Assembly (NCBI GenBank): GCA_045635745.1
Contig: JAZTWG010000053.1
Location: 8,883-72,882 of the forward strand
DNA length: 64,000 nt
Reading direction: 5' to 3'
DNA from: Victivallaceae bacterium
GTDB taxonomy: Bacteria > Verrucomicrobiota > Lentisphaeria > Victivallales > Victivallaceae
Below the pieces are notes generated by a model that was not told where the DNA came from, made no database searches, and worked only from the letters and a program-made list of their open reading frames with translations. This document shows, piece after piece, positions 35,244 to 53,525 of this stretch. Position numbers and translations under genes: made by a program. Every line of letters begins with the position of its first letter. The first letter of the stretch is position 1.

Positions 35244-36635
35244 TTACCGCTCAAAAATGAAGATATTGCGGGCTTCGCCGATGGCGTTTTCGTCAAAGTT
35301 CACTCCGGCGATCACCAACTGCAGGCGTTTGCCTTCTTTGGGTACTTTTACAAAGCTGCCGCGATACCCGAAATAACAGTTTTTCTTATATGTGAACCCA
35401 TCGCATTTGATGACTTTGCCGCTGGCATCGAGAATTCTTGCGTGGATATTGAACGAACTCTCTTTGCCGACCGGCAGTACAGCCCGGATTGAAGCGATGA
35501 TTTCCAGCGTTTTGCCGCCGACATCCGGGTGGTCGATATCGATGATCTTGGACATGACCTTTCTGCCCCGTGCGTTTTTGCCCGGCAGCGTTATCAGATT
35601 GCCGTCGATCACAAAATCATCATTGCCGGTGCCGCTTTTCAGAGTATAGACATCACAAGCCCAGCGCCAGGGATATTTCGGATCGGGGGCAAACGGTTTG
35701 CTGTCAAGTATTTCTCTGTAATAGCGCTTGATGTTCTGCGCGGTAACTGCATCATCGCTCAAGATGCCGTCCAGCAGAATATTGGCGATCACCGGACCGT
35801 TTTCAGTCATGGTTACATAAGTTATATGGTCAAATTCGCCGTATTCCACCCCCCGCATCTGGGAAACACCACCGGCGGTGGCCAGCACATAATAATCATG
35901 GCCATCGCGCTTGAACTTTATGTAGTGATGCCAGTCGCCGGCAAAACAGGTGTATTTGCGCTGCTTCAGAACTTGCTGGATCCTGATATAAGCCGGGCTG
36001 ATCCATGCGCTCGGATTATGCACAAAAACCATTGTCCAGCGCACTTTCGGATTCTTATTCAAAACATCGATTGCCCAATCGGCCTGCTGATCGGTGATAC
36101 CCACTTGCGGCACGCGCGAGTCCCGGCCTTCCATACTGTTCAGGCAGATAAAGAGCACGTCTTTGTAAATGAAACTGTAGTAAGTGTTGGGGCCGGCAAA
36201 TTCTTTCCAGACCATTGCGCTGTTGTCATTGGCACGCGGAAAACCTTTGCGGTTGACCGAGATATCGTGGTTGCCGGGCAGATAAAAGAAGGGAGCCTGC
36301 GATTTTGCAGTAAAGCTTGCCAGCTCTTTCCACTGTTCGCGCAAATGCCCGGGCGATTGTTTGGCGATGTCGGTCGGCCCCTGAATAAGGTCGCCGACGG
36401 TCATGATAAAATCAGGCTGGAGCGAATTGGCTTTTGTTATTGCCTGTTCAAATATGCCCGGACGTTCGCTGCCGGTACGGTCGGGAATGATGATAAAGGA
36501 GAATTTTTCATCTCCGGCAATAAAATTTTCGTGTGTCCACGGTTTTTTCCCTTCCGGCAGGGAGTGTTTGAAGTTTTCGCCGGCAATTAAAGCGGCTGCA
36601 GACAGCAATAAAGCCAAGAATAAAAATTTACGCAT
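35244..36635 (-). CDS. secreted calcineurin-like metallophosphoesterase with C-terminal beta-rich domain
   Basis: Signal peptide MRKFLFLALLLSAAALIAG. Motifs IIIPDRTG, TVGDLI, PGNHD, VFVHNP. ATG at 36635 is preceded by AGGAG. Confidence 0.8.
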   Translation of the reverse strand: MRKFLFLALLLSAAALIAGENFKHSLPEGKKPWTHENFIAGDEKFSFIIIPDRTGSERPGIFEQAITKANSLQPDFIMTVGDLIQGPTDIAKQSPGHLREQWKELASFTAKSQAPFFYLPGNHDISVNRKGFPRANDNSAMVWKEFAGPNTYYSFIYKDVLFICLNSMEGRDSRVPQVGITDQQADWAIDVLNKNPKVRWTMVFVHNPSAWISPAYIRIQQVLKQRKYTCFAGDWHHYIKFKRDGHDYYVLATAGGVSQMRGVEYGEFDHITYVTMTENGPVIANILLDGILSDDAVTAQNIKRYYREILDSKPFAPDPKYPWRWACDVYTLKSGTGNDDFVIDGNLITLPGKNARGRKVMSKIIDIDHPDVGGKTLEIIASIRAVLPVGKESSFNIHARILDASGKVIKCDGFTYKKNCYFGYRGSFVKVPKEGKRLQLVIAGVNFDENAIGEARNIFIFER

Positions 36636-36869
36636 TAAAATCTCCTGTTTTGTTATTGTTTTCAATATTCTGTATTGCTTAATATACCATAAAAATCAGC
36701 TGGTGTCAAGCCCTGGTGATTGGAGAAAAGTCCATAATTTGCAAATATGTCGGGACAGGCGCGATTTGAAATGAAATTTTCATATATATTTAAACATTTT
36801 TTATTTGATTTTATTGCTTAATAATGCTATTGTATGGCTATGAAACTATAGGATAATTGTGTACTTTTT

Positions 36870-37232
36870 ATGTGGCAGTGTCGTAAAATTTATGCTAACT
36901 TATTGCTGCTGAGTGTGTTGCTTTTTTCGCTCGGTGCGGCTGTGCGTCCGGCTTACAGTACGCTTTTTGCCGGGGGGACGGCAACGTGGAGCGCTCCGGC
37001 AGAAAATGTTGAGTTCCGTTGGGAAGCTCATGGAGCTGCAGTTGTCTATCGCAGTCAGCAGATAACAGCGGTTACAGCCGGTGATTGGGATTTGATCGTG
37101 CCGGAAGGCTGGTGCGATCTGCGATTGACAGGTCCTGAAGAAAAATCTTTTGTTGAGTGTTGGCGTCAGAATAACGGAGCATCTGTTCTGCTGCCGGTCG
37201 GCAGGGCACCGCCCGCGAAGGGCAATTGCTGA
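36870..37232 (+). CDS. hypothetical small secreted protein
   Basis: 120-aa ORF with a signal-peptide-like N-terminus (LLLLSVLLFSLGAAVRPAYS) and no competing ORF. Followed by a short hairpin plus T-run. No family recognised. Confidence 0.4.
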   Translation: MWQCRKIYANLLLLSVLLFSLGAAVRPAYSTLFAGGTATWSAPAENVEFRWEAHGAAVVYRSQQITAVTAGDWDLIVPEGWCDLRLTGPEEKSFVECWRQNNGASVLLPVGRAPPAKGNC

Positions 37233-37249
37233 TTTTGTGATTGGGAGCG

Positions 37250-37267
37250 AACCGTGAACGGTTTTTT
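37250..37267 (+). terminator. weak intrinsic terminator
   Basis: AACCG-TGAA-CGGTT followed by TTTT. The stem is only 5 bp. Confidence 0.3.
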
Positions 37268-37365
37268 GAGCTCTGTAAATTTTGTTGGATTTTTTTCAGT
37301 AAGTTTTGAGATAAATAATAATAAACCAGAATGGGTCTTGTAAAAGACTTCCGGGAGTTGACAGC

Positions 37366-39366
37366 ATGAGTAAAACAGTAAATTATCGCGCTGCCATTGA
37401 CAATGCCGGAGTAATGACCAAGCTTTCCGCAATCGGAACTGTATTGAGCGGAGTGTTTGCATTGCTGCTGTTGTTGTTGGGCGTGGTCAAAAGCTCGTTC
37501 GCCAATTCTGATGCCTTTGCGGTGGTGGTAATACCTTACACCGTGGCGGTGTTGTTCGGATTGGCCGCCACACTTTACGGCATGTTTGCCAAAGGTGCGG
37601 CAATTGAAAATGAAGAAAAAATGCTGCTGGCAAAACGTCACGACAACAATATGCTTGCCGTAGATGAAGATGCCCGCTTCACCCAGCAGAGAACGCTGGA
37701 TAACTATGAAAAATATGCTCCGTATGTTTTGAGTATTGCCGCGGCACTGCTGATCGGCGTGTTGTGCATGCTCTTCTTCAGCCATTGGGCCGACCGCAGC
37801 TCGGAATTGCGTGAGGCGGTTTTGAATACCGCGCCGATCAATCCGATGTATATGGTGTTTCTGGCGGCGGTGATCGGGGTGATCTCGCTTTTTGCCGGAG
37901 CGTTTTTCAATGGGCAGTCGCATGACGAAGCGTTCCGCTGGCTGCGTCCCTTCGGAGCATGGCTCATTGCCGGCGCGGTGGCTTCGGCGGCAGCGGTGAT
38001 TTCCGGACTCTGTTTCAAGTCCGGGCTTAAAGGGTACGATTCGATCATTGCCAGAACGCTGCTGATCATCTATCTGGTGCTGGCGGCAGAACTGGTTTTG
38101 AGCTTTGTTGTGGAATTTTACCGGCCGCGTACTCTGGAAGAATCCCGCCCGGTCTTTGAAAGCCGCATACTGGCTCTCTTTACCGAACCCGGCGGCGTTA
38201 TGCGCAACTTTGCGGATATGCTCGACTATCAGTTCGGGTTCAAGGTCTCTTCAACTTGGATGTACAGTTTTGTTGAACGGGCGATCTTTCCGCTGCTTCT
38301 GCTCTGGGCGCTGTTGCTCTGGGGGTCGACTGCCATTCATGAAGTTGATTCCAACGAAGTGGGGCTGCGGAGCAATCTCGGTAAACTTATCAATACAGAA
38401 AAGCCGCTGAAACCGGGTATCTATTTTACCTTGCCCTGGCCCTTCGGCACGCTTGAAAAATACTCCTGCGATCAGATCTACGAAGTGGTGATCGGCCACG
38501 AAGAACACGATGATCATGAAGAAGAGGAAGAGTATGTCGATGACGGCCACGGTCATAATCCTCCGCCTAAAAAAGAAAAGGAAAAGAAAGATCACAGCGT
38601 TGTGCTGTGGACCGCCGAACATGGCGAAGGCAACAACAACTTTATTGTGGCCAACGATGTATCGCACTCCGGCGGTGATAAATCCGGCGATGTACTGGGA
38701 GACTTCTACTTTGTAGGTCTTTCCATGCCCATACAGTACCACATCCGCCCCGATGGCATATATAATTATGTATACGGCAGCGTGGATGCCAAACAGGTCA
38801 TCAAAAACATTGGCCACATGGTAGTCACCGAATATCTGGCCAGCGCGCCGTTCTATCAGGTTATCACCAGCGGCCGCCGCGAAGCCGAAGAAAAACTTAA
38901 AAATCGCATCCAAGCCGAATGCGATGCCCGTAATCTGGGCGTGGAGATCATAGCCGCCAATCTCGTAGGCATCCATCCGCCGACCCAGGTGGGCAAGGAG
39001 TTCCAGAACGTGCTGGGCGCTATGGAAGAACGCGAAAAAATGGTGCTGGCAGCCGAAGCGTACAAAGCACAGGTCCTGCCGCAGGCCAAAGCCGATGCGC
39101 TGGCGATCCGTGAACAGGCATCGGCGGCAAGTTATCAGACTGCCACGGTGGCCAAGGCTGTCAGCGACCGCTTTGTCAAACAGCTGCAGGCATATCAAAC
39201 AATGCCCAAGCTGTTCATGCTCAAAAACTATCTGGATTTCCTGGAAAATGACTGCAAAGATGTGCGTAAATATGTCTTGAGCAGTTCGCTGCAGGGCGAT
39301 GTATACGAGCTGAATTTGGAAGAAAAAGAGCGTCTGAATTTGTTTGACGCCAACCTGGGTGAATAA
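37366..39366 (+). CDS. polytopic membrane protein with C-terminal SPFH/band-7 (HflK/C-like) domain carrying a His/Asp/Glu-rich insertion
   Basis: About 300 aa of hydrophobic segments. Then an SPFH-type core (VDSNEVGLRSNLGKL...PGIYFTLPWPF...LGVEIIAANLVGIHPP) and a coiled-coil tail. Insertion GHEEHDDHEEEEEYVDDGHGHNPPPKKEKEKKDHS. GGGAG RBS. Confidence 0.7.
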   Translation: MSKTVNYRAAIDNAGVMTKLSAIGTVLSGVFALLLLLLGVVKSSFANSDAFAVVVIPYTVAVLFGLAATLYGMFAKGAAIENEEKMLLAKRHDNNMLAVDEDARFTQQRTLDNYEKYAPYVLSIAAALLIGVLCMLFFSHWADRSSELREAVLNTAPINPMYMVFLAAVIGVISLFAGAFFNGQSHDEAFRWLRPFGAWLIAGAVASAAAVISGLCFKSGLKGYDSIIARTLLIIYLVLAAELVLSFVVEFYRPRTLEESRPVFESRILALFTEPGGVMRNFADMLDYQFGFKVSSTWMYSFVERAIFPLLLLWALLLWGSTAIHEVDSNEVGLRSNLGKLINTEKPLKPGIYFTLPWPFGTLEKYSCDQIYEVVIGHEEHDDHEEEEEYVDDGHGHNPPPKKEKEKKDHSVVLWTAEHGEGNNNFIVANDVSHSGGDKSGDVLGDFYFVGLSMPIQYHIRPDGIYNYVYGSVDAKQVIKNIGHMVVTEYLASAPFYQVITSGRREAEEKLKNRIQAECDARNLGVEIIAANLVGIHPPTQVGKEFQNVLGAMEEREKMVLAAEAYKAQVLPQAKADALAIREQASAASYQTATVAKAVSDRFVKQLQAYQTMPKLFMLKNYLDFLENDCKDVRKYVLSSSLQGDVYELNLEEKERLNLFDANLGE

Positions 39367-39406
39367 TTTTAAGGTAATTTATATATAGAAAGGCATAGAA
39401 TAGATC

Positions 39407-40345
39407 ATGTCAAGCAAGGTTTTCAAACATTGGCCGACGCTCCTTCTGGGCGTGTTTGTATTTGCAGTGCTGCTGGTGGCAGTTTTCACTTATCAGGTAA
39501 GCAGTACTGAAGTAGCAGTTGTTGAACGTATGGGGCAGATGCTCGACGAGCATCCGGCAGCGGGGCTGCACTTCCGTTGGCCGTATCCCTTTGAAAAGAT
39601 CACCAAATATGACAAACGTCTGCATTGCTTCGGCGGTCATGACGGGCAGATCGAAGAAACAGCCACCGCTGACAAGCAGAACATCCTTGTGGGGGTGTTC
39701 ATTACCTACCGTATCAGCGATCCGCTGACTTTTGCCAAGCGCATGACCAGCTTCAAGAAAGCCGAAAGCGAACTGGATATCTGGATGCGCGGCGCCAAAA
39801 ATGCTGCGTTCGGCAAATACAAGTTCGATCAGATCCTTACCACCGATCCCAAGAACATGCGTCTGAACGAAATCGCCGATCAGATCAAAAACGATATGCT
39901 GGTCAAAGCCAAGCCCTACGGTCTGGAAATCTGTTCGGCCGGGATCACTACGCTGAATGTGCCCGAAGCAGTCAGCAGTAAGGTTTTTGAACGTATGAAT
40001 CAGGATCGTATGCTGGCGGCCCAGCGTTACCTCGGCGAAGGTAAACTCCGCGCCGAAGAGATCCGCATTGCTGCCGATAAAGAACGCGCCAATATAATTG
40101 CCAATGCCGAAGCGCAGGCAAAAGAGATCAGCGCACAGGGCGATGTGGAAGCCGCCAAATACCTGCGGGTATTCGACAAAAATCCCGAATTGGCAGCGTT
40201 TTTGCGTAAACTCGACAGTTTGCGTACCATCATGAAGAGCAAGACCACTCTGGTGCTGGATACCAACACCGACCCCTTTACTCTGCTCAAGAGCAATGCC
40301 GATCAGCTCGCCGTGCCCGCAGTTCCGGCGAAAACTGCCAAATAA
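39407..40345 (+). CDS. SPFH/band-7 family protein (HflC-like)
   Basis: N-terminal anchor, then VSSTEVAVVERMGQ...GLHFRWPYPFEKI...GLEICSAGITTLNVPE and an Ala/Glu-rich coiled coil (RAEEIRIAADKERANIIANAEAQAKEI). Confidence 0.75.
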   Translation: MSSKVFKHWPTLLLGVFVFAVLLVAVFTYQVSSTEVAVVERMGQMLDEHPAAGLHFRWPYPFEKITKYDKRLHCFGGHDGQIEETATADKQNILVGVFITYRISDPLTFAKRMTSFKKAESELDIWMRGAKNAAFGKYKFDQILTTDPKNMRLNEIADQIKNDMLVKAKPYGLEICSAGITTLNVPEAVSSKVFERMNQDRMLAAQRYLGEGKLRAEEIRIAADKERANIIANAEAQAKEISAQGDVEAAKYLRVFDKNPELAAFLRKLDSLRTIMKSKTTLVLDTNTDPFTLLKSNADQLAVPAVPAKTAK

Positions 40346-40360
40346 TGAGGCTTGAAGTCT

Positions 40361-41527
40361 ATGGATAACGAAAAGAAAAATCTTACGCCGGATACCGAGC
40401 TGTACAATCAGTACGGCGGCGGGGTCAGAGCGTTTATGAAAGCCGGCCACTGGGTCTTTCTGGCTCTGGTGGGGCTTATCTTTGCCATGCTGGTCTACTT
40501 CTTTACGCTGGGTGGTTACTTTGCTGTTTCGCCGCAGGAAGCGGTGATCGTATTGCGCTTCGGCAAATATGAAAAAACTTACACCAGCGACTGGCATTGG
40601 TTTCTGCCCGATCCGGTAACCAGCAAAGTGGTGGTGCCGACCAGCCCGCAGACTCTGCAAGTTACTTTCAACGCCGGAATCATGCCCGATCAGCTGCCGC
40701 CGCCGGGCCCCAACGGTGAACTGCCCGGACTGCAGCCCAACCGCGACCGTTATTTGCTGACGGCCGATGCCAATATCATCCACGCCAGCTGGAGCGCCCG
40801 TTTTCAGGTGAGCGATCCGGCGGTGTTTTATCAGACTTTGCGCGTACCGGCGAATCCGGCCGGACCGGACGATATCGTGGTGGATGAAGGCGAAGAACTT
40901 GGCCGCCGCGGCCCCCGCACATTGCTGGGCAGAATGCTGGAAAGTGCTGTGATAACCACCACCGCACAATGGACGGTCGACGAAATACTCTATTCGCGCC
41001 AGACCGAATACCGCGAAGCTGTGGAACGCGCCTACCGCAAGATGGTTGCCGATCTCAATATCGGGGTGGTGATCGAAGAAGTGCGGATCAATGGCAAAGT
41101 AATGACCCCCGCTGTTACCCAGGCGTTTTTCGATGCGCTGACCGCCGCCCGTGCCGAACAGGGCACTATGATCGACAAAGCGCGCGAATATGGTGTAAGC
41201 ATCCGCGCCAAGGCCAGCGAAGAAAGCTCGCGCATCATAGCACAGGCGGAAAATTACCGTACTATGGTTGTGGCCGATGTAAAAGCCGAAAGTCTTTACT
41301 TTGAAAGTTTCCTTAAAGAATACAACGAAAATCCCCGCACCGCTCTGATGAGCCGCTACAACGCGGTGCTGGCCGAAGTCATGGCCGGTATTGATCAGAA
41401 GTTTGTGTTGGGTGCCGGCAATGGCGGCAAGCTCTGGCTCAAGCTCGGTCCGGAAATTCCCAAGGCCGAAGAAACTGCCAAACCCGCAGAAACTCCGGCG
41501 AAGACCACCCCGGCAGGAGGCAAATAA
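40361..41527 (+). CDS. SPFH/band-7 family protein (HflK-like)
   Basis: N-terminal tail plus one TM, then VSPQEAVIVLRFGKY...NIGVVIEEVRINGKVMTP and a coiled coil. ATG 40361 preferred over TTG 40352. The stop lies 2 nt before the P-type ATPase ATG. Confidence 0.7.
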   Translation: MDNEKKNLTPDTELYNQYGGGVRAFMKAGHWVFLALVGLIFAMLVYFFTLGGYFAVSPQEAVIVLRFGKYEKTYTSDWHWFLPDPVTSKVVVPTSPQTLQVTFNAGIMPDQLPPPGPNGELPGLQPNRDRYLLTADANIIHASWSARFQVSDPAVFYQTLRVPANPAGPDDIVVDEGEELGRRGPRTLLGRMLESAVITTTAQWTVDEILYSRQTEYREAVERAYRKMVADLNIGVVIEEVRINGKVMTPAVTQAFFDALTAARAEQGTMIDKAREYGVSIRAKASEESSRIIAQAENYRTMVVADVKAESLYFESFLKEYNENPRTALMSRYNAVLAEVMAGIDQKFVLGAGNGGKLWLKLGPEIPKAEETAKPAETPAKTTPAGGK

Positions 41528-41529
41528 TT

Positions 41530-43473
41530 ATGAGTGAAAATATAAGTGTTGCAGTAAATAATACAGTCAGCAGCGAAGACACCCGCAAGCGCAGTCTGGT
41601 GCTGGTGGGATTTGCCGTACTTGGCGGCATGCTGACTGCCAACTCGTTTATTTTGAGTTATTTTCTGCCCGGACAGACCTTTGCGGCCACTTTCAGCGCC
41701 TTGTTCGGCGCGTTTGTGCTTGCCATGCCGATCATTTATACGGCAGTAAAAGATTTGTTTTCCGGCAAAGTTTACATGAATGAACTGGTGGCGCTGGCCA
41801 TCCTTGCCGCACTGGCAGGGGGCAACTACCAGACTGCCGGCGGACATTTTCAGAATGCCGGTGTGATCGCATTCTTTCTGCTGATAACGATCATCATCGA
41901 AAGCCGCACTGCTTCGGGGGCCCAGCGTTCGATTGAAGAACTGGTAAAACTTACACCCACCCAGGTTCACCTGATCAAAAACGGTGCCGAAGTGGATGCC
42001 GATGTAATGAGTTTGAATCTGGGCGATATCATCCGTGTGCGCCCTGGTGAAAATTTTCCGGTCGATGCAGAGGTTATTTCCGGCGAAACGATCGTCAATC
42101 AGGCGTCGATTACCGGGGAATCCATGCCGGTGGACAAGGTTGCCGGCGACGATGTTTATGCCGGTACGCAGAACCTGACCGGTCTGGTGGAGCTCAAAGT
42201 TACCCGGCTGGGTGAAGATACCACCCTCGGCAAGGTCAAAAACATGATCATGCAGGCCGAAAACTCCCGCACTCCGATCGTGCGTATCATCGACCGCTAT
42301 GCCGGCTATTACACCCCCACGATTCTGATGCTGGCGGGTATCACCTGGTGGTTTACCGGAGATATATCCAAAGTTATCACACTGCTGGTGATTGCCTGTC
42401 CGGGGGCTATCATGCTTGCTTCGCCTACTGCCATTGTGGCGGCGGTGGCGGCGGCGGCCCGTCTGGGGGTCTTCATCAAAGATGTCAGCCATCTGGAACT
42501 CGCGGCAAGAATCCGCAGTTTTGTGTTTGACAAAACCGGTACTTTGACCGACGGCCTGCTGTCAGTAGTCAAACTGGTGCCGTTCGGCGAAGTAAGTCCG
42601 GCTGAAATGCTGAAACTGGCCGCTTCGGCCGAAGCAAACAGTAACCACCCGACTGCAGTGGCGCTGGTGAAACTTGCCAACGAGGCGCAGCTGGAGCTTG
42701 CTCCGGTCAGCGAATTCAAAGAAACCCACGGTAAAGGGGTCAATGCTGTGATCGACGGTGTGGCTGTGGCAGTTGGCCGTTCAGCATGGCTGGAAACACA
42801 GGAATATACTCTGCCGGAAGACTTCAACACCGAAGATACTGCCGGTTTGAGCGTGGTATTTGTAGCCCGTGAAAAAGAGATCATCGGCTGGATCGGTTTG
42901 AGCGATAAGATCCGTAAAGAAGCCGCGCAGGCACTCAAAGATCTGCGGAGTCTGGGTGTCCGGCAGGTGGCTATGGTCACCGGGGACCGCGAATCGGTGG
43001 CTGAAAAAGTGGCCAATGTGCTGGATATCGATGAGTTCCGCAGTGAATGTCTGCCGGAAGCCAAGGTCGAATATGTGGAAAATGCCAAAAAGAGTTATCC
43101 CACCGCAGTTGTGGGCGATGGTGTGAACGACGCACCGGCGCTGGCAGAAGGCGATCTGGGGATTGCCATGGGGGCCATCGGCAGCGATATTGCCATTAAC
43201 AGTGCATCCATTGCGCTGATGACCAATGACCTGCGCCGTATACCCATGCTGATCGACCTTTCGCAGAAATCGCGGATGGTCATTTATCAGAATCTTTGCA
43301 TAGGCATACTCTTTGTTTTCGGCGGCATGGTGCTGCTGGTCTTTGACAAGATGACTCCGGTGGGAGCGGCGATCTTGTACACATTGAGTACATTGGTGGT
43401 GATCTTCAACAGTGCGCGTCTGGTCCGAACCGGTGAAGAACTTACGTTGGAAGATAATAAAAATAAAAAATAA
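41530..43473 (+). CDS. P1B-type (heavy-metal-type) P-type ATPase lacking an N-terminal metal-binding domain, with CPG in place of CPC
   Basis: ITGESMPV (actuator), DKTGTLT (phosphorylation site), SNHPTA (P1B HP motif), GDGVNDAPAL (hinge). Transmembrane motif reads ACPGAIMLASP. AGGAGG RBS. Confidence 0.85.
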   Translation: MSENISVAVNNTVSSEDTRKRSLVLVGFAVLGGMLTANSFILSYFLPGQTFAATFSALFGAFVLAMPIIYTAVKDLFSGKVYMNELVALAILAALAGGNYQTAGGHFQNAGVIAFFLLITIIIESRTASGAQRSIEELVKLTPTQVHLIKNGAEVDADVMSLNLGDIIRVRPGENFPVDAEVISGETIVNQASITGESMPVDKVAGDDVYAGTQNLTGLVELKVTRLGEDTTLGKVKNMIMQAENSRTPIVRIIDRYAGYYTPTILMLAGITWWFTGDISKVITLLVIACPGAIMLASPTAIVAAVAAAARLGVFIKDVSHLELAARIRSFVFDKTGTLTDGLLSVVKLVPFGEVSPAEMLKLAASAEANSNHPTAVALVKLANEAQLELAPVSEFKETHGKGVNAVIDGVAVAVGRSAWLETQEYTLPEDFNTEDTAGLSVVFVAREKEIIGWIGLSDKIRKEAAQALKDLRSLGVRQVAMVTGDRESVAEKVANVLDIDEFRSECLPEAKVEYVENAKKSYPTAVVGDGVNDAPALAEGDLGIAMGAIGSDIAINSASIALMTNDLRRIPMLIDLSQKSRMVIYQNLCIGILFVFGGMVLLVFDKMTPVGAAILYTLSTLVVIFNSARLVRTGEELTLEDNKNKK

Positions 43474-43482
43474 TGATAGTGC

Positions 43483-43514
43483 ACAGCTTTCCGGATTTCC
43501 ATCCGGAAAGCTGT
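43483..43514 (+). other. perfect 14-bp intercistronic stem-loop
   Basis: ACAGCTTTCCGGAT (43483..43496), loop TTCC, ATCCGGAAAGCTGT (43501..43514). No T-run follows. It lies between the ATPase stop and the ABC ATPase start. Confidence 0.6.
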
Positions 43515-43539
43515 ACATAGAGAGGAAAGGGTGAAAAAG

Positions 43540-44700
43540 ATGGCAGAAGATGCAATACGCGCGGTAGGCTTGACCAAAGTGTTCCGCGATTTCTGGAACC
43601 GCCCCAAAGCCCGGGCGGTTAATGAGATCGACTTTACGGTCAAGGAAGGCGAAGTAGTCGGTTTGCTTGGTCCCAATGGTTCTGGAAAGTCCACTACAGT
43701 GAAGATGATATTGGGTTTGCTTTATCCCACCGCCGGTCAACTTACCGTGCTGGGGAAGGCTCCACGTGCAGTGGAAACGAAAAAAGCGATCGGGTATCTG
43801 CCCGAAGAATCCTATCTGTATAAATATCTGACGGCGGAAGAAACGCTGGACTTTTTCGGATCGCTTTTCAACCTTTCCCGCGCTGAACGCAAAAACCGTA
43901 TCGATCAGCTGCTTGATATGGTTGGTCTGGCTCACGCCCGCCATCGCCGGGTGGGAGAATTTTCCAAAGGTATGGCGCGCCGTATCGGTCTGGCGCAGGC
44001 AATGATCAACGACCCATCGCTGCTGATTTTTGACGAACCCACCAGTGGTCTTGACCCGCTGGGCTGCCGGGAAGTTAAAGATTTGATCATGGAGCTGAAA
44101 AAGCGCGGAAAAACCGTGCTTATAACCAGCCATCTTTTGAGTGATGTGGAAGATATCTGCGACCGCGTGGTTATTCTCTACGGCGGGAAAGTCCGGGCAC
44201 AGGGCAGTTTGAATGAACTGCTGACCGTCAGCGACAGTACCCGTATCGTTACGCCGACCTTGAGCAAGGATGCCACCGAAAAAGTGCTGACTGTTCTGCG
44301 CGAAAATCTCAATGGCGAAGAATTTGTTATGGATCATCCGCGTCGCACGCTCGAAGAGTTCTTTCTGGATGTTATTGCCAAAGCCAAGAACGACAGTGTG
44401 GAAACATCCGGTGCGCTCGGCGGCGGCATAGCTGAATACCTTTCGGCAGAAAAAGATAAGGAAAGCACCGTGCTGGAAACTCTTATCGCTCAGCCTGAAG
44501 CGGTCAAAAAGCCCACCGCTGAAGAGAGTGCTGCCAAGCTGGCAAGTGAGCTCAAAGCCGCCGAAGAAAAACGGTTGGCAGACCTTACTGCCGGCGATGA
44601 CAGGAGTGTTGTCAACAAAGATGAAGAAAAGGTCAAGGCCGAGGCCGAAGCTCTTAAAGCAGCCGATGCCAAACTTGACGATTTATTGAAAAACCGCTAA
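43540..44700 (+). CDS. ABC transporter ATP-binding protein (ABC-2/CcmA-type) with ~90-aa charged Ala/Glu/Lys-rich C-terminal extension
   Basis: Walker A GPNGSGKSTTVK, signature FSKGMARR, Walker B LLIFDEPTSGLD. The tail ends ...AAKLASELKAAEEKRLADL...EKVKAEAEALKAADAKLDDLLKNR. ATG 43540 preferred over GTG 43531 because of RBS spacing. Confidence 0.85.
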   Translation: MAEDAIRAVGLTKVFRDFWNRPKARAVNEIDFTVKEGEVVGLLGPNGSGKSTTVKMILGLLYPTAGQLTVLGKAPRAVETKKAIGYLPEESYLYKYLTAEETLDFFGSLFNLSRAERKNRIDQLLDMVGLAHARHRRVGEFSKGMARRIGLAQAMINDPSLLIFDEPTSGLDPLGCREVKDLIMELKKRGKTVLITSHLLSDVEDICDRVVILYGGKVRAQGSLNELLTVSDSTRIVTPTLSKDATEKVLTVLRENLNGEEFVMDHPRRTLEEFFLDVIAKAKNDSVETSGALGGGIAEYLSAEKDKESTVLETLIAQPEAVKKPTAEESAAKLASELKAAEEKRLADLTAGDDRSVVNKDEEKVKAEAEALKAADAKLDDLLKNR

Positions 44701-44729
44701 ACAACATTGGTGAACGGAAAGTACAAATT

Positions 44730-46175
44730 ATGACGGCATTTAATGCAATCGTAAAACTGACATTACGCAATGCGTTGCGTTCGCACATCTTCCAGCTGCT
44801 GCTGGGGTTACTGGTGTTGTGTGCGGTGGCGTTGCCGATGACAGTTTCCGGCTCCGGCGAGGGTGCGCGTGCTTATATACAGATCGCGCTCAAATATTCG
44901 CTGGGTACAGTCGGTTTTATTCTGGCGCTTTCCACGGTGTGGATCGCCAGTCTGGTCATGACACAGGATGTGGAAAGTTATCAGCTGCACATGGTGGTTG
45001 CCAAACCTGTATCGCGCCTCAAGATATTTCTTGCCAAATATTTGAGTGTGGTATTGCTCCATGCGGTGCTGCTGCTGCTGGCGGGGATCACGATTTTTGC
45101 GGTGGTTTTGTACCGTTTTGGCAAAAACGATTTTCCTGCCGAGGAAAAATCCCGGATCGAAAACGAAGTGATGGTTGGCCGGAGGGTCTACTTCCCCAAG
45201 CCGCCGGATATGGAAAAACTGACCCGTGAAGCTCTGGCCCAGCAGTTGGAAGAAATGAAAAAAGCCGGTCGCGGCAGAGTTACAGCCGATGCCGCCGAAA
45301 TGGAAAAAGATATCCGCAACGGTTTGAGCGAAGAAATGCTGCGCCAGCGTTCGGAGGTTCTTTTCCGTAAGTTCGGTGAATGGGAATATGAAAATCTGCC
45401 CAAAAATATGACCAATCCGATTTATTTGCGCTACCGGCTCTATGTGGGCAAAATCGATACCGAGGCCCAGCGCAACACCACCGGCTGGTGGGTGGGATTC
45501 TTTGAAGAAAAGAAGCAGTCCATCGGCAACGGTCAGGAAATTGAACAGGCAGTTCCAGTGGCAGAAGAGGATTTTACCCGCACCTGGCGGCCGCTTTCGC
45601 CCTCGCCGGAACAGAATTACGCCGGTGAATTTCACGAAAAAGTGTTGCCGGCATCGGTCATTGACCGTGCGGGAAAAGTCAATCTGCGTTATATAAACAT
45701 CGATAACGCGCAGGATAAAGTCTATTTTCAGACGATCGACGGACCCAAACTGCTGATAAAAGTTACCGGCTTCACCGGCAACTTTGTCCGCGGTCTGATA
45801 GTGATACTGCTGATGCTTATGGTCTATGCCGGAATCAGCTGCTGTGCGGCGGCGGCATTCAGTATGCCGACATCGATTTTTACGGTATTGAGCTATATGT
45901 TCCTCGGCAGCGTTGCACCGCTGGTGATGACCACCAGTCAACTGGCTGATCCCTCCAAATACACCGGATACTGGATCGGTAAAGTTGCCATGCTGATCGT
46001 GGCTCCGCTGCAGGAATTTGAAATTTCGCAGAAGATAGCCGGCGGTGAATTAGTTGAATTTGCTTATATCGGCGAGTTGTTCGGCGAATATTTCATGCTC
46101 AAGGCATTGCCATTTATCCTGCTGGGAATGTGGCTTTTCTGGAAACGTGAACTGGGATTGGTGATCAGAAAATGA
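44730..46175 (+). CDS. ABC-2-type permease-like membrane protein with large extracytoplasmic insertion
   Basis: Hydrophobic segments at both ends flank a ~200-aa hydrophilic region. Positioned directly after an ABC ATPase. No sequence motif recognised beyond topology. Confidence 0.5.
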   Translation: MTAFNAIVKLTLRNALRSHIFQLLLGLLVLCAVALPMTVSGSGEGARAYIQIALKYSLGTVGFILALSTVWIASLVMTQDVESYQLHMVVAKPVSRLKIFLAKYLSVVLLHAVLLLLAGITIFAVVLYRFGKNDFPAEEKSRIENEVMVGRRVYFPKPPDMEKLTREALAQQLEEMKKAGRGRVTADAAEMEKDIRNGLSEEMLRQRSEVLFRKFGEWEYENLPKNMTNPIYLRYRLYVGKIDTEAQRNTTGWWVGFFEEKKQSIGNGQEIEQAVPVAEEDFTRTWRPLSPSPEQNYAGEFHEKVLPASVIDRAGKVNLRYINIDNAQDKVYFQTIDGPKLLIKVTGFTGNFVRGLIVILLMLMVYAGISCCAAAAFSMPTSIFTVLSYMFLGSVAPLVMTTSQLADPSKYTGYWIGKVAMLIVAPLQEFEISQKIAGGELVEFAYIGELFGEYFMLKALPFILLGMWLFWKRELGLVIRK

Positions 46176-47770
46176 TAAACTTTGGAAAAATCGGCAAATA
46201 TTTGCTTGCGCTGGTGGTTTCGGCGGTGCTCATTTTCGGCATAAGCGCCACTCAGCGTAAACTTGATACAATGATCCGTCAGCACGATCTGTTCTTTACC
46301 GGCCAGATCAATAATGCTCCGCCGCTGGTGGCATTTACCACCATGGCACTGGGGAGTTTCCGCGGACTTATTGCGGACTTGCTCTGGCTGCGGGCGGCAT
46401 CGCTGCAGCAGGATAAAAATTATTTTGAAATGGTTCAGCTGGCCAGCTGGATCACAAAACTCCAGCCCCGCTTTGCCGGAGCCACGGCATACCTGGCATG
46501 GAACATGGCATATAATATATCGGTGACATGTTCGCTGTGGCAGGACAGATGGTACTGGGTGTGGGAAGGGATCAAACTGATCCGTGACGAAGCTTTGCTC
46601 TACAACCCCGGGGCGGCGAGATTGTACTGGGAGTTGGCGGTGATTTTTCAGCAGAAAATGGGTAACGTGCTGGATAATGCCAGCTATTACTACAAAGCGC
46701 GTCTGGCTACGGAGATGGAAGCTGTCATAACTCTGGACCCCAAATGGGAGCAGTGGAGTACCATGCCCTATGCAGCGGAAGGCTTTATGAAGCTTTTCCC
46801 GGAAAGCGATCCCATGTGGGCCGCGGCTCGTAAAGCCGGTTTGCCGGGTTATGCTGCTTTGAATGAAAACTTCCGGATCAATTCCGTTTTGCCGGCTAAA
46901 TTTGTGGATGCGTTGAAAGATGCCAAAAAAGCGGAAAAAATCGATGCAGCTCTGCGTACTGTCTGGCTGCACGATAAGTACCGGCTGCGTGCAGATTACA
47001 TCCATAAGCTCAATATGGAATACGGCTCCATGGATTGGCGTTTGCCGGAAGCCCAGGCGATTTACTGGGCAAGCGAAGGTATCCGCATGACCGGGCACGA
47101 TACGCAATGTTCGCGCATTATCGCCACCTGTCTGCAGGAAATGATGCGTGCCGGACGCATATTGTGGACCCATCAGGATGGTTACCGCTATTTGATCATT
47201 GCGCCTAATCTGGATATAGTCATGTCGGCGATCCGTACCTATGACTGGGCGTATGATAAATCGAATAACATGGAAAGTTTCAAGACCGGCAAGATCAACT
47301 TCATGAAAAATGCTGCGGTGTTCCTTTTCTACTTCGGCAGATTGGATGAAACGCGTGAAGTCTATAAAATTCTGCAGAAAGATGATCATACGGTCAAATA
47401 TCCGCCTTTTGCAGTATTTCTTGAACGCGAGCTCAAAGAGATCGTAGCCACCGCAACATTCAAACAGATAACCGACGTTATCAATGCCTTTATTCAGAAC
47501 GCGCTCAATGCGGCGGTCAATGACGATGAAGAAAAGGTCGCTATGTATGAATTGATGGCCAAGAAAGTCTATGCCGATTATCAGAAAGGCATCCGTTCAG
47601 AAAAAGAACGCGGCCGCCGCGGTCTGGCGCCGTATAACGAGATCCGCAATCAGGTGGTCAAAGATTATCTTGCCAATGCCAATCCCAAGGCGGCGGCAAT
47701 CATCCGCTCCAAGATTCGCAGTCAGCAGCTTTTGCGTGACAGCGAAGCGGTCAAAGAAGATAAAAAATAA
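46172..47770 (+). CDS. hypothetical membrane-anchored protein with Trp/Tyr-rich helical repeats
   Basis: One N-terminal TM (KYLLALVVSAVLIFGISAT), then repeated amphipathic helical segments (ADLLWLRAASLQQDKNYFEMVQLASWITKL..., AYLAWNMAYNISV..., ARLYWELAVIFQQKMGN...). ATGA overlap with the permease gene. Confidence 0.5.
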   Translation: MINFGKIGKYLLALVVSAVLIFGISATQRKLDTMIRQHDLFFTGQINNAPPLVAFTTMALGSFRGLIADLLWLRAASLQQDKNYFEMVQLASWITKLQPRFAGATAYLAWNMAYNISVTCSLWQDRWYWVWEGIKLIRDEALLYNPGAARLYWELAVIFQQKMGNVLDNASYYYKARLATEMEAVITLDPKWEQWSTMPYAAEGFMKLFPESDPMWAAARKAGLPGYAALNENFRINSVLPAKFVDALKDAKKAEKIDAALRTVWLHDKYRLRADYIHKLNMEYGSMDWRLPEAQAIYWASEGIRMTGHDTQCSRIIATCLQEMMRAGRILWTHQDGYRYLIIAPNLDIVMSAIRTYDWAYDKSNNMESFKTGKINFMKNAAVFLFYFGRLDETREVYKILQKDDHTVKYPPFAVFLERELKEIVATATFKQITDVINAFIQNALNAAVNDDEEKVAMYELMAKKVYADYQKGIRSEKERGRRGLAPYNEIRNQVVKDYLANANPKAAAIIRSKIRSQQLLRDSEAVKEDKK

Positions 47771-47779
47771 TTGTCGCAC

Positions 47780-47801
47780 CCGGGCAGGAGCTCCTGCCCG
47801 G
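47780..47801 (+). terminator. palindromic GC-rich hairpin after the operon (terminator-like, no T-run)
   Basis: CCGGGCAGGAG|CTCCTGCCCGG, a perfect 22-nt palindrome 10 nt after the stop at 47770. Confidence 0.35.
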
Positions 47802-47990
47802 AAAATATAAATCAACAGGAAAGGATAAATCGGTAGTAACTCTTATGGATGGAGGAATTACTCAGTCGCATCAGGTGCTGACTATGGTCAGCGAGAGTAT
47901 GGGAGAACCCTCTGAAGACCCTGGAAGTAGTAATGGCAACGGGGGCAAGCCGGCGGTAAAAAGTGTATATCAGGCACCGGAGGTGCGGAT

Positions 47991-49286
47991 ATGATCAACA
48001 CAGCATTGCTTGCGGGTATCAGTTTTTCATTGGACAACAGCGAAGTTGTCTGGGCTTTGGTACTCCTCGTTGCCAGTATGGCGATGGCGATAATGGTGTC
48101 GTTTATGTGTTCACTGCTGGAGTCGGCGCTTTTGAGTCTGACACCCAGTCAGCTGGCAGATATAACGAACAAAAATCCCAAACGCGGCGAATTGTGTTCG
48201 CGTTTAAAGGATGATATTGAACAATCTCTGGCGGTGATTCTCATCTGCAATACTGCCGCGCACACGATTGGTGCGGCGATTGCGGGTGCAGAGTTTGCCA
48301 AGCTTTTCGGAGCCGGCTGGCTGGGGGTGTTCACATTGGCGTTTACGCTGATAATGGTGCAGTATACAGAGATATTGCCCAAAACACTGGGCGTGCATTA
48401 CAATTGCCGGATCATAGCAGTAAGTGCCGGAAGTCTGTTCTTCATGACCAGGTTAATGGCGCCGCTGATCAAACTGGTGCATTTGATCAACCGTCCTTTT
48501 GAAGTCAAGGATGATGACAATCAGCCCACGGCGGCGGCGGAGATCGCCGCATTGGCCAGTCTGGCGCGGCAGGAAAAAGAGATAAGCAGTCAGCAGGAGC
48601 GGATTTTGCTGGCTACGCCGAAACTTTCTGAACGGCGTGCCGACGAGATAATGCTGCCGGTGGAGAATATATCGTTTGTTTCTTCGACTCAAACGCTGGC
48701 GGAAGCGCTGAATACTGCTCCGGCGGACTTTCATACCCGGTATCCGGTGTGTGATAACGGCGATAAAGATAAGGTTTTGGGGTACATCAACTTCAAAGAG
48801 CTGGTGGCGACTTTCCGGGCGCATCCGGAACGGAACAAATTGCGCGATATCGTGCGGCCGATAGCGTTTGTATCGCCGGATGTTTCGGCGGCAAATCTGC
48901 TGGAACGTTTCGCAGTGCAGCATGTACATCTGGCGATCGTGCAGAATGCTGCCGGCAGAACGCTGGGGCTGATTACGATGGAAGATATCGTTGAAGAACT
49001 CATCGGAGATCTTGATGATGAATTCGATCCGCTGCCCAAAACATTCTATTCGCCCAACGAAGGATTCTGGGTGATCGGCGGCGGAGTGATGGTTTCCATG
49101 GTCGCTGCGGAAACACCGCTGGCAGTGCCCAATGCGGCATTGAGCTTGTCGGATTGGTTCTGCAATCAGCTGCGGCGCAGTCCCAAAACCGGCGATGTGG
49201 TGAAGTATCAGAATGCCGAGTTTTATGTGCGTAAGATCCGTCGCGGGCGGGTCATGGAATTTAACGTAAGGCGGACCGGGATCTGA
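47991..49286 (+). CDS. CNNM/CorC-family (DUF21-CBS pair-CorC_HlyC) divalent-cation efflux-type protein
   Basis: DUF21 membrane region (LLESALLSLTPSQLADI...AVILICNTAAHTIGA), a CBS pair (ADEIMLPVENISFV...VLGYINFKEL...GLITMEDIVEELIGDL..DEFD), and a C-terminal CorC_HlyC-like beta domain. GGAGG RBS. Confidence 0.85.
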   Translation: MINTALLAGISFSLDNSEVVWALVLLVASMAMAIMVSFMCSLLESALLSLTPSQLADITNKNPKRGELCSRLKDDIEQSLAVILICNTAAHTIGAAIAGAEFAKLFGAGWLGVFTLAFTLIMVQYTEILPKTLGVHYNCRIIAVSAGSLFFMTRLMAPLIKLVHLINRPFEVKDDDNQPTAAAEIAALASLARQEKEISSQQERILLATPKLSERRADEIMLPVENISFVSSTQTLAEALNTAPADFHTRYPVCDNGDKDKVLGYINFKELVATFRAHPERNKLRDIVRPIAFVSPDVSAANLLERFAVQHVHLAIVQNAAGRTLGLITMEDIVEELIGDLDDEFDPLPKTFYSPNEGFWVIGGGVMVSMVAAETPLAVPNAALSLSDWFCNQLRRSPKTGDVVKYQNAEFYVRKIRRGRVMEFNVRRTGI

Positions 49287-49309
49287 TTCCGGGCTGTGAC
49301 AGGAGTTTT

Positions 49310-50014
49310 ATGAAAAAGAAGAGTACAGCTGAAAAATTGCTGGCGGCTGCGGTGCTTATTCTGACTGCCGGATGTATTGACGTTGATTATGTGGGGCAGA
49401 GCTTTCCGGCTCTGCCCGCCGGAAGCAATGTTACTATCTATACGCCCGAGTCGCCATTGAGCGATCGCAGCTACCGAGCCATCGGCCGGGTCAGTATAAC
49501 AGCTCCGGAAGGCACAACCCGGGGCGAGATCAATGAAAAGCTTACTGTTCTTGCCCGCGAACATGGTGCTGATACGGTAAATATCATATCGGTCAGACGG
49601 GTGGTCATCGGTCCCGGGGCACCGGATACTTCGATGGCAGCGCAACCCACATGGAACCGCGATGCACGCAATATGGGCGGCAATTATATTTACAGCAATA
49701 ACTTCGGGCAAAGCAATGTAAATCCCCCGGTAAGCAACATAACCGAGTGGCAGATTAAGGCGCTGTTAATGGTTACGGAAGAGAAATTTCAGGCGATGAA
49801 AGAACTCTACAATAAGCAGCGAGTCAAATTGGATGAACTTTCCGGCGGAGCCGCCGTTGCAGCTCCGGCTGCAAGCGCTGGAGTTGCGTTGGATCAAGCT
49901 GCTCAAAGTGTTGACATACCGCCGGCCAAACCGGTTGAAAAAACGGTGAAAAGTGCCCCAAAACCGCTGAAACTCGAGTTGGGAGCCGGCCCCGGGCAAA
50001 CGGTTATTCTTTAA
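49310..50014 (+). CDS. lipoprotein, possibly with YdgH/BhsA (DUF1471)-like domain
   Basis: Lipobox LILTAG|C. The segment YRAIGRVSITAPEGTTRGEINEKLTVLAREHGADTVNIISV resembles the DUF1471 pattern. Low-complexity Ala/Pro C-terminus. AGGAG RBS. Confidence 0.55.
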   Translation: MKKKSTAEKLLAAAVLILTAGCIDVDYVGQSFPALPAGSNVTIYTPESPLSDRSYRAIGRVSITAPEGTTRGEINEKLTVLAREHGADTVNIISVRRVVIGPGAPDTSMAAQPTWNRDARNMGGNYIYSNNFGQSNVNPPVSNITEWQIKALLMVTEEKFQAMKELYNKQRVKLDELSGGAAVAAPAASAGVALDQAAQSVDIPPAKPVEKTVKSAPKPLKLELGAGPGQTVIL

Positions 50015-50031
50015 TTTAAGGAGTTAAGATA

Positions 50032-53305: not shown

Positions 53306-53525
53306 AAAACACACACTTCCAAACTTGAAAAGTTACAATTTTCCTTTAATATATCGCCAAAATTGCTTACGCGCAATACCGGAGAATGATTTTTTTTTCA
53401 AAAAAGCGTTTAAATAAGTGGAATTTGGCCGCTTGCAGGGGTATAGTATTCAAAGATTGACCCCGCGCAGCATTTTCTGCTGCTGTCGGTATGGTCATGT
53501 AAACAGAAAAAAAAGCAGGATTTTT

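Follow-up and report, generated by a model that had tools for sequence, protein, structure and literature searches.

Gene organisation of the locus

The 64-kb stretch of a Victivallaceae genome analysed here (64,000 nt; hereafter the window) carries, at nt 37366–47770, a block of seven co-oriented genes (g1–g7) encoding three SPFH proteins related to HflK and HflC, a P1B-type ATPase and an ATP-binding cassette (ABC) module. All seven open reading frames (ORFs) lie on the + strand where an earlier sequence-only reading of this DNA had placed them, with intergenic spacings from g1 to g7 of 40, 15 (6 if a TTG start is used), 2, 66, 29 and –4 nt in the ORF listing, and Pfam and NCBIfam agree with its domain description of three SPFH/Band_7 proteins, one P1B ATPase and one ABC ATPase. 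Domain scans of the block and of large ORFs elsewhere in the window turned up neither FtsH nor NfeD; that reading had already noted the lack of both in the block.

The first gene, g1 (nt 37366–39366), specifies a protein of 666 aa with seven predicted transmembrane (TM) helices followed by a C-terminal, HflK-like SPFH domain. It is followed by g2 (nt 39407–40345), encoding an HflC-like SPFH protein with an N-terminal TM anchor, g3 (nt 40361–41527 from an ATG start, or from a TTG at nt 40352), encoding a second HflK-like SPFH protein, and g4 (nt 41530–43473), encoding a P1B-type ATPase with intact catalytic motifs and a degenerate metal site. The ABC ATPase gene, g5 (nt 43540–44700), begins at the same ATG that is used by its orthologs, and its product ends in a low-complexity tail rich in Ala, Glu and Lys. 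The product of g6 (nt 44730–46175) is an ABC-2-like permease with six TM helices and a predicted beta-rich periplasmic domain, and that of g7 (nt 46172–47770) is a TM-anchored protein, rich in Trp and Tyr, that is predicted to form an all-alpha, tetratricopeptide repeat (TPR)-like solenoid. The stop of g6 and the start of g7 overlap by 4 nt, an arrangement kept in 59 of 82 loci.

Conservation and modularity of the block

The best matches of g7, g6 and g1 come from metagenome-assembled genomes (MAGs) of Lentisphaeria/Victivallaceae from gut and rumen, with up to 95–98% identity. A scan of one genome per GTDB species returned at least 587 relatives of g7, from which 80 loci were kept, and the loci collected were compared by tblastn of all seven window proteins. 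Gene calls around the g7 or g1 homologs revealed an identical seven-gene order with wholly different flanks in four relatives: Victivallis sp. Marseille-Q1083, Lentisphaerota ZTH, Lentisphaerae GWF2_45_14 and V. vadensis. The seven genes are co-oriented in 41 non-redundant loci of Lentisphaerota and Verrucomicrobiota, again with unrelated flanks, among them two Verrucomicrobiota loci (L079 and the Limisphaerales locus L082) in which g1, g6 and g7 share 27–34% identity with those of the window. Since the order persists in so many loci, amid unrelated flanks and down to such low identity, it is far beyond chance, and the genes do form a conserved cluster in genomes of the Planctomycetota–Verrucomicrobiota–Chlamydiota (PVC) group. 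The sequence-only reading had staked its proposal on synteny in relatives, and synteny is what was found.

The same comparison does not sustain the view of the seven genes as a single unit, as g1–g4 (module A) and g5–g7 (module B) are separable and each occurs alone. Five loci with full upstream sequence (L035, L036, L044, L048, L068) have only g5–g7, and about 25 more distant loci have only g6–g7, with no ABC ATPase gene within reach. In L041, g1–g4 are inverted yet still abut g7, in L047 an insert of 2.2 kb separates g4 from g5, and the MAGs of V. vadensis include both a full block (L088) and a detached g5–g7 (L036). From this distribution and the g6–g7 overlap, the invariant core is the g6–g7 pair, followed by g5, while g1–g4 form a separate module. 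Where both modules are present they can be close, the g4–g5 gap being no more than 20 nt in 18 of 47 loci. The g3–g4 gap is 1–13 nt in the gene calls of the four relatives; these were relied upon instead of a heuristic estimate (median 107 nt), which is biased by the variable N-tails of g4. Module B was seen here only in Lentisphaerota, Verrucomicrobiota and Kiritimatiellota. The neighbourhoods of stand-alone g6–g7 and g5–g7 copies gave no functional clues, their flanks being unrelated housekeeping genes (threonine synthase, MgsA, ExbB, a Ser/Thr kinase, an epimerase).

The SPFH proteins

Pfam detects the Band_7 domain at aa 446–565 of g1, and in g2 and g3 with E-values of 3.5e-21 and 2e-17, respectively. 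None of the three reaches the NCBIfam equivalog cut-offs for HflK or HflC: g1 and g3 score 97.9 and 95.7 bits against hflK (TIGR01933, cut-off 159.4), and g2 scores 123.8 bits against hflC (TIGR01932, cut-off 134.4). The nearest solved structures are HflK (7vhp) for g1, HflC (7vhp_G) for g2 and HflK for g3. One TM helix each is predicted for g2 and g3. In the loops of g1, hydropathy and positive-inside counts give 18 Lys/Arg inside versus 6 outside. The topology derived in this way puts its SPFH domain on the periplasmic side, and all three SPFH domains are predicted to be periplasmic, as in HflK/C.

The resemblance to the FtsH–HflK–HflC cage of E. coli (7vhp, 7wi3) thus extends to the N-terminal anchor, the predicted periplasmic SPFH domain, the side-by-side encoding of K-type and C-type paralogs, and the fact that HflK and HflC are the nearest solved relatives. 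The block differs in having three paralogs in place of two, one of them with a seven-TM N-terminal domain, in scoring below the equivalog cut-offs, and in that its genetically coupled partner is a P-type ATPase and not the AAA protease FtsH.

The best conserved part of g1 is a cytoplasmic loop at aa 250–301 (EFYRPR...EPGG...LDYQFGFK), which is also covered by the BLAST alignments between g1 and the corresponding proteobacterial proteins (K1, see below). The family of its N-terminal seven-TM domain comprises 781 clusters at 50% identity, and nearly all members are 630–800 aa long with the same fused architecture; there is one distant member from Phycisphaerales. That this domain might be an independent known family was considered and rejected, as it has no Pfam match and its relatives nearly all share the fusion. 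The SPFH domain of g1 bears an acidic, His-rich insert (HEEHDDHEEEEEYVDDGHGH; nt 38480–38560, g1 aa 372–445) that includes the motif DDGHGH.

The P-type ATPase

The g4 protein is matched by the Pfam families E1-E2_ATPase and Hydrolase, and scores 523 bits against TIGR01525 (cut-off 346). Its catalytic motifs (FDKTGTLT, ITGES, SNHPTA, VGDGVNDAPAL) are intact and conserved in orthologs. No other protein of the block is as well conserved: g4 shares 92% identity with its counterpart in L008, versus 59–77% for the other six. It has neither an N-terminal metal-binding domain nor a His/Cys-rich N-tail. The positions expected to carry metal ligands read CPG in TM4, YQN in TM5 and YTLST in TM6, so that one Cys is kept while the second TM4 ligand has been replaced and the TM5 Asn and the TM6 His have each been changed to Tyr. 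The TM4 sequence ACPGA stands opposite ACPCA of CopA, and the YN (TM5) and MxxSS (TM6) residues of CopA are absent.

Most orthologs are different. CPC is present in TM4 of 38 of 45 orthologs, 37 of those 38 have a TM6 motif that begins with His (HAGST, HTLST etc.), and NQN is found in TM5 of 33 of these 37. The N-tails of the 38 CPC pumps contain a mean of 14 His and Cys residues, with repeats such as CSCGHDHEHEH, and CPC, the TM6 His and a His/Cys-rich N-tail occur together in 37 of the 45. The pumps of the window, L007 and L008 have CPG, YQN and YTLST, those of L021, L025, L038 and L039 have CPV, AQN and HTLSS, and that of L026 has CPC with QIIST; none of these carries the His/Cys tail. The DDGHGH insert of g1 co-occurs with all of the ligand-poor pumps (8/8), and among blocks that have a ligand-intact pump and a readable g1 only 2 of 33 possess it; this co-occurrence stems from few independent events and is suggestive only.

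Among P1B ATPases, TM5 and TM6 carry YN and MxxSS in subgroup 1B-1, and K and DxG in 1B-2, while 1B-4 has HEGxT. The TM4 motifs are SPC in 1B-4, PCP in 1B-5, SCA in 1B-6 and CSC in 1B-7 (PMC13460109). In a motif comparison (not a tree) using the combinations CPC+YN+MxxSS (1B-1), CPC+K+DxG (1B-2), SPC+HEGxT (1B-4) and PCP, SCA and CSC (1B-5 to 1B-7), no subgroup signature (1–7; PMC13460109) fits either the window pump or its orthologs. The closest likeness is to P1B-4 (sCoaT, 7qbz; CzcP, PfeT, CtpD), pumps that also lack a ferredoxin-like CxxC domain. The TM6 His of the orthologs aligns with the H of HEGST in sCoaT, their HAGST/HTLST followed by xxxxFNSARL aligns to HEGSTLVVVANALRL of the same protein, and sCoaT is the best PDB match for the TM5–TM6 segment. 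The TM4 motif differs, however, being CPC in the orthologs and CPG in the window, versus SPC, and CopA, ZntA and sCoaT match the whole protein with about equal scores, so that g4 cannot be placed in P1B-4.

The four-gene cassette in Proteobacteria

The combination of three SPFH proteins with a P-type ATPase was regarded as unfamiliar in the sequence-only reading. It is, instead, a widespread four-gene cassette. Searching plasmids with g1 by tblastn located the g1–g4 cassette on replicons of alpha-, beta- and gammaproteobacteria, including Klebsiella aerogenes pYD-K10_1, Paraburkholderia sprentiae pl1WSM5005, a Rhizobium tumorigenes plasmid and Burkholderia ubonensis pMSMB2035. In these plasmid cassettes (L089, L090, L091, L092) the order is a long multi-TM 'HflK', 'HflC', an SPFH protein and a cation P-type ATPase, and most junctions are 4-nt overlaps. 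The same order, co-oriented and with tight junctions, is seen in g1–g4 of the window and in 41 PVC loci. Best blastp matches in Klebsiella and Paraburkholderia are to the positional counterparts (g1 to K1, g2 to C, g3 to K2 [weak, 1e-9] and g4 to the ATPase, P). By score comparison, not by tree, the cassette ATPases match each other with 318–396 bits, above any solved P1B class, the best PDB P1B scores being 265 bits for the Klebsiella pump and 338 bits for the Limisphaerales pump.

The cassette of P. sprentiae (L090) adjoins a znu-like Zn ABC importer, a DUF2946 protein and a PCu(A)C copper chaperone, while that of B. ubonensis (L092) is flanked by the insertion sequence (IS) elements IS5, IS110 and IS66. 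These neighbours suggest horizontal mobility and a metal-acquisition context for the proteobacterial cassette.

A similar set of genes has been described in Pseudomonas aeruginosa. The PA2434–PA2439 region includes hmtA (PA2435), encoding a P1B ATPase for which import of Zn and Cu has been reported (PMC4542158 Table 2; PMC11761036; PMC10393844, PMC8456098), together with PA2437 (HflC family), PA2438 (HflC) and PA2439 (HflK family) (PMC4542158 Table 2; PMC11761036). Expression of these genes rises when znuA is mutated or zinc is depleted, and there is a weak Zur box in the vicinity (PMC4542158; PMC11761036). The SPFH genes of the cluster receive only passing mention (PMC4542158; PMC11761036; PMC10393844, PMC8456098). 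By published annotation, not by sequence, the hmtA cluster (PA2435–PA2439) shares the arrangement of the cassette. A direct literature search for SPFH paired with P1B returned nothing specific, and the Pseudomonas link emerged by way of HflK, heavy metal and P-type ATPase. The triple-SPFH/P1B arrangement is therefore not new; it has been annotated and is mechanistically unstudied.

The proteobacterial cassettes differ from the window in standing alone, without g5–g7 and without the CNNM and lipoprotein genes described below. Their pumps combine CPC with LLHN(M/V)(S/G)T, whereas in most PVC pumps CPC is paired with H(A/T)xST and the Cys/His-repeat tails are much longer. The window pump differs further from those of the plasmid cassettes in having lost its ligands, and identity between the two groups is low (21–34%).

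The ABC module

The g5 protein has a clear ABC_tran domain (PF00005, E = 3e-34), with DrrA, GldA and LptB as its best NCBIfam matches. Walker A (GPNGSGKST), the signature (FSKGM), Walker B (LLIFDEPTSGLD) and the H-loop (LITSH) can all be recognised, and Walker A/B and the H-loop are conserved. At the Q-loop position the sequence is LPEE(S/T), with Glu in place of the usual Gln, and this motif, like FSKGM, is conserved across 56 aligned g5 proteins. The tail of 91 aa (Ala 20%, Glu 15%, Lys 14%) is a variable linker rich in Ala, Glu, Lys and Pro, with a conserved onset (GG.IA.YL) and a conserved extreme C-terminus ([DN]xKLxxLL). It had been suggested from the sequence alone that this tail is a coiled coil that could dock onto those of the SPFH proteins. 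What the alignment reveals is a poorly conserved linker with a short conserved end motif, not a conserved coiled coil, and docking is topologically unlikely because g5 is cytoplasmic while the SPFH domains are predicted to be periplasmic. A screen for anti-phage defence with PADLOC gave just generic ABC and AAA matches for g5.

For g6, the window protein itself has a sub-threshold match (ABC2_membrane_4, PF12730; 23.7 bits versus a cut-off of 27), whereas many of its homologs have precomputed matches to PF12730, PF12679 or PF12698. Its AlphaFold2 model (pLDDT 81, pTM 0.78) starts with TM1–TM3, continues into a periplasmic domain of about 210 aa that is rich in beta structure, and closes with TM4–TM6, where short helices separate TM5 from TM6. 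Foldseek gave no significant match to this model (E above 0.01); the best whole-chain match was LptG, with TM-scores of 0.28–0.37, and the beta domain resembles jelly-roll or carbohydrate-binding module (CBM) folds, also below significance. A genuine LptF/LptG-family permease gene is present in the window 6 kb downstream of the block (nt 53418–54704); its product has no detectable homology to g6 despite a similar TM3–beta domain–TM4 layout. The idea that g6 is a diverged LptF/G was accordingly rejected, given an hhalign probability of 0.5% against this LptF and the non-significant Foldseek matches to LptG.

Profile searches that might have placed the last two proteins thus yielded a weak ABC-2 signal for g6, and for g7 no match in Pfam, NCBIfam or among PDB sequences; profiles of either protein against the PDB found no solved relatives. 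The model of g7 (pLDDT 77) predicts a TM helix and a TPR-like solenoid, for which Foldseek returned generic TPR superhelices only (TM-scores about 0.15). From the net positive charge of the N-tail the solenoid is probably periplasmic.

In outline, module B is similar to LptB2FG, GldAFG and NosDFY: g5 is of the DrrA/GldA/LptB type, g6 is modelled with the six TM helices and the periplasmic beta domain between TM3 and TM4 that are characteristic of LptF/G, and there is a third, co-translated, membrane-anchored partner. It differs from LptF/G in that g6 has no sequence homology to them, and from GldAFG and NosDFY in lacking a GldG-type (ABC_transp_aux) or NosD/NosL partner, g7 being a TPR-like solenoid. 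The earlier comparison of the module with Nos and Gld systems is not borne out, as no GldG-type or NosD-type accessory protein is present, and the last three genes match no other well-characterised system.

Downstream genes and intergenic elements

In the gut subclade the block continues past nt 47770 with two further genes on the + strand. Gene 8 (nt 47991–49286) belongs to the CorB/MpfA-type divalent-cation exporter family, with CNNM (PF01595, 92 bits), CBS (PF00571, 45 bits) and CorC_HlyC (PF03471, 31 bits) domains, all above cut-offs. Apart from the window, 21 related loci have it co-oriented behind g7, from which it is separated by 11 nt in V. vadensis. Gene 9 (nt 49310–50014) encodes a predicted lipoprotein of 234 aa without family assignment and without a Pfam match; it follows the CNNM gene in 13 loci and comes directly after g7 in L019, L024 and L049. 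A perfect GC-rich palindrome of 22 nt, read from the sequence and with no T-run after it, is present just past the stop of g7 (nt 47780–47801), as noted earlier. The block nevertheless does not end at nt 47770 in this lineage, and the palindrome need not mark an operon end, since a syntenic, co-oriented gene comes next.

Overlooked in the earlier reading was a hairpin with a 13-bp stem between g4 and g5 (nt 43484–43515, + strand), again read from the sequence and again with no T-run after it. Loci L007 and L008 also have a hairpin at the g4–g5 junction, differing in sequence, and L008 has a comparable one at the place of the post-g7 palindrome. Both module borders are thus occupied by GC-rich hairpins that lack T-runs, at positions shared with L007/L008 although the sequences differ. 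Such elements may adjust the stoichiometry of the modules, either as partial terminators or by stabilising the mRNA. Upstream of the block, directly 5' of the g1 ribosome-binding site, the 5' untranslated region includes the hairpin GTCTT-GTAA-AAGAC (nt 37335–37348, + strand), which is kept in L007 and L008 with compensatory changes in the stem; no Rfam family matches it. A terminator proposed further upstream (nt 37250–37267) does have a short stem and a T-run, although it is weak and absent from the consensus scan list; a plausible role is termination of the upstream gene.

Proposed function and alternative explanations

We put at about even the chances that the block is a composite operon serving divalent-metal homeostasis, in which a dedicated pump is scaffolded by a periplasmic SPFH assembly resembling HflK/C. 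Under this proposal, g1 (K-like), g2 (C-like) and g3 (K-like) would co-assemble into a periplasmic cage or arc, anchored in the inner membrane as in HflK/C. On the model of HflK/C and FtsH, this structure would surround or confine the P1B ATPase translated along with it, and would govern how stable the pump is, which lipids it sits among or which partners can reach it. Contact with the pump would most likely be made by the strongly conserved cytoplasmic loop of g1. The ancestral pump may have handled a borderline-soft divalent metal of the Zn/Co/Ni/Cd/Fe class; HmtA, from the like-annotated Pseudomonas cluster, is reported to be an importer (PMC4542158; PMC11761036). Module B would contribute an ABC machine with a permease bearing a periplasmic beta domain and, in g7, a membrane-anchored and probably periplasmic TPR-like partner, to which module C of the gut subclade (genes 8 and 9) would add a CorB/CNNM cation exporter and a lipoprotein. 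Beyond the gene content, synteny, modularity, motif states and fold-level features observed above, we infer cage formation, the pump–cage complex, the substrate, the direction of transport and any functional coupling of modules A and B from homology, gene coupling, the FtsH–HflKC paradigm and the precedent of the PacL/CtpC effluxosomes.

The metal or envelope-homeostasis machine envisaged in the sequence-only reading is partly supported by these data. Its metal link is plausible in view of the 37 of 45 pumps with His/Cys tails, CPC and HxxST, the appended CorB/CNNM gene, and the zinc-starvation-induced cluster of P. aeruginosa. A precedent for a scaffolded pump is provided by the PacL/CtpC effluxosomes of Mycobacterium tuberculosis (PMC9374683, PMC13460109), in which a P1B ATPase is co-encoded with a membrane scaffold that is needed for stability and clustering (PMC9374683, PMC13043812, PMC13460109). 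PacL1 carries the His/Asp metal-binding motif DLHDHDH, which may be compared with DDGHGH of g1, known from sequence, and Glu/Ala-rich repeats occur in both systems, although in the block the Ala/Glu/Lys tail sits on the ABC ATPase. There are also clear differences: PacL is a small DUF1490 protein and not an SPFH protein, its foci are independent of flotillin, and its motif is cytoplasmic while the g1 loop is predicted to be periplasmic.

Several observations weigh against the proposed metal operon. The window pump has no metal ligands of the usual kind (CPG, Asn to Tyr, His to Tyr, no N-tail), which makes the metal assignment weaker for this genome. Modules A and B are each found alone, so that their adjacency in PVC genomes could be inherited and not functional, and a conserved hairpin parts one from the other. 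Neither g6 nor g7 yields a clue to a substrate, the likeness to the P. aeruginosa cluster is solely by published annotation, and no regulator gene lies inside the block. An Rfam E-value scan of nt 36000–50500 produced only a chance match to isrG and no metal-sensing riboswitch, and when the 250-nt regions preceding g1 in 39 loci were searched for dyads and k-mers, no shared Zur/Fur-like operator was detected.

The window pump has lost its His/Cys tail and three TM ligand positions while remaining under strong constraint, and g1 carries the His-rich loop. Probably this pump now handles a different, harder cation or depends on the scaffold for its metal handling. In its boldest form this would be a three-subunit HflK/C-type cage dedicated to a P-type pump and, in PVC genomes, wired to an ABC/TPR machine and a CorB exporter as a multi-transporter platform, with metal recognition having moved in the window lineage from the pump to the His-rich cage loop of g1, so that the scaffold selects or buffers the ion. 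This extended version is doubtful; it is kept alive by the disappearance of the tail, the second TM4 Cys, the TM5 Asn and the TM6 His from the window pump.

Among other explanations, we consider it unlikely that the locus consists of two or three independent transcription units (g1–g4, g5–g7, and the CNNM and lipoprotein genes) that are adjacent by descent and uncoupled. Such units would fit the occurrence of each module by itself (g1–g4 in Proteobacteria, g5–g7 in five loci, g6–g7 in about 25), the V. vadensis MAGs with full (L088) and detached (L036) arrangements, the conserved hairpins at both module borders and the 2.2-kb g4–g5 insert in L047. They are harder to reconcile with an adjacency that survives to 27–34% identity (g1, g6, g7) in two phyla with all flanks changed, that was retained despite the inversion in L041, and that includes a g4–g5 gap of no more than 20 nt in 18 of 47 loci.

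It is rather improbable that g1–g3 are simply the HflK/HflC system of this organism, modulating an FtsH encoded elsewhere, with the transporters either clients of FtsH quality control or unrelated neighbours. In E. coli, hflK and hflC are not encoded beside ftsH, so that the absence of FtsH from the window says little on this point. The closest solved relatives of the three proteins are HflK and HflC of the FtsH–HflKC complex, the hflC score of g2 falls just under its cut-off (123.8 versus 134.4 bits), and a P-type ATPase, MgtA, is listed as a substrate of FtsH (PMC13220708). There are, however, three paralogs where two would be expected, the seven-TM N-domain of g1 is specific to the cassette family, and the hflK scores of 96–98 bits are far under 159. 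In Proteobacteria, moreover, the SPFH trio and the P1B ATPase travel as a unit, with overlapping genes and on IS-flanked plasmid segments. Proteobacterial genera with the cassette usually have a chromosomal hflKC as well.

Finally, an envelope- or lipid-handling machine in an SPFH-organised membrane domain, made up of a non-metal P-type ATPase, an LptF/G-like extractor ABC and a periplasmic TPR partner, could be imagined for this lineage from a pump that has lost all four metal-ligand classes yet is highly conserved, a g6 modelled with LptF/G topology and with LptG as its best whole-chain Foldseek matches, a g5 that scores well against LptB, and a Trp/Tyr-rich solenoid in g7 that is probably periplasmic; but this is very unlikely, as those Foldseek matches are non-significant (E above 0.01, TM-score 0.28–0.37) and hhalign finds no homology to the window LptF, 37 of 45 orthologous pumps are clearly of metal type, the appended CorB/CNNM gene points to cations, and we know of no lipid-moving P1B ATPase.

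Significance of the cassette

Beyond the gating of FtsH, the role of SPFH assemblies in bacteria is still to be worked out, and the HflK/C cage around that protease has until now served as the structural paradigm. The cassette hard-wires three HflK/C paralogs to a P1B pump, from plasmids of Pseudomonadota to chromosomes of PVC bacteria, and in P. aeruginosa it is zinc-regulated by published annotation. It therefore represents a genetically clean, testable case of a transporter-dedicated SPFH scaffold; if the scaffolded-pump proposal is true, HflK/C-type SPFH cages would have dedicated clients besides AAA proteases. It may also bear on the disputed 'importer' activity of HmtA, which was measured without the three SPFH partners. 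A cassette already known, though unstudied, accounts for part of the block, which also has an extension and a pump variant that are new in these phyla. With the PVC version come two further protein families of unknown function, those of g6 and of g7, the latter with at least 587 species-level relatives, and the natural 'ligand-loss' variants of the pump can be used as evolutionary experiments. As Victivallis vadensis is cultured and has the full block, it is usable experimentally.

Other features of the window

Just beyond gene 9 is an ORF of 160 aa (nt 50032–50514) without a Pfam match. It is present also in L008 and L061, and recurs about 1.4 kb downstream of the detached g5–g7 in L035, L036, L044 and L068, so it may be residual synteny or a further partner. 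An ORF of 695 aa on the – strand (nt 51227–53314) has GreA/GreB domains only in its C-terminal part (aa 537–684); the remainder is either a long extension at the N-terminus or the product of a GTG start called too far upstream. The first 2 kb of the window (nt 1–2000) have a G+C content of 39%, versus about 50% elsewhere.

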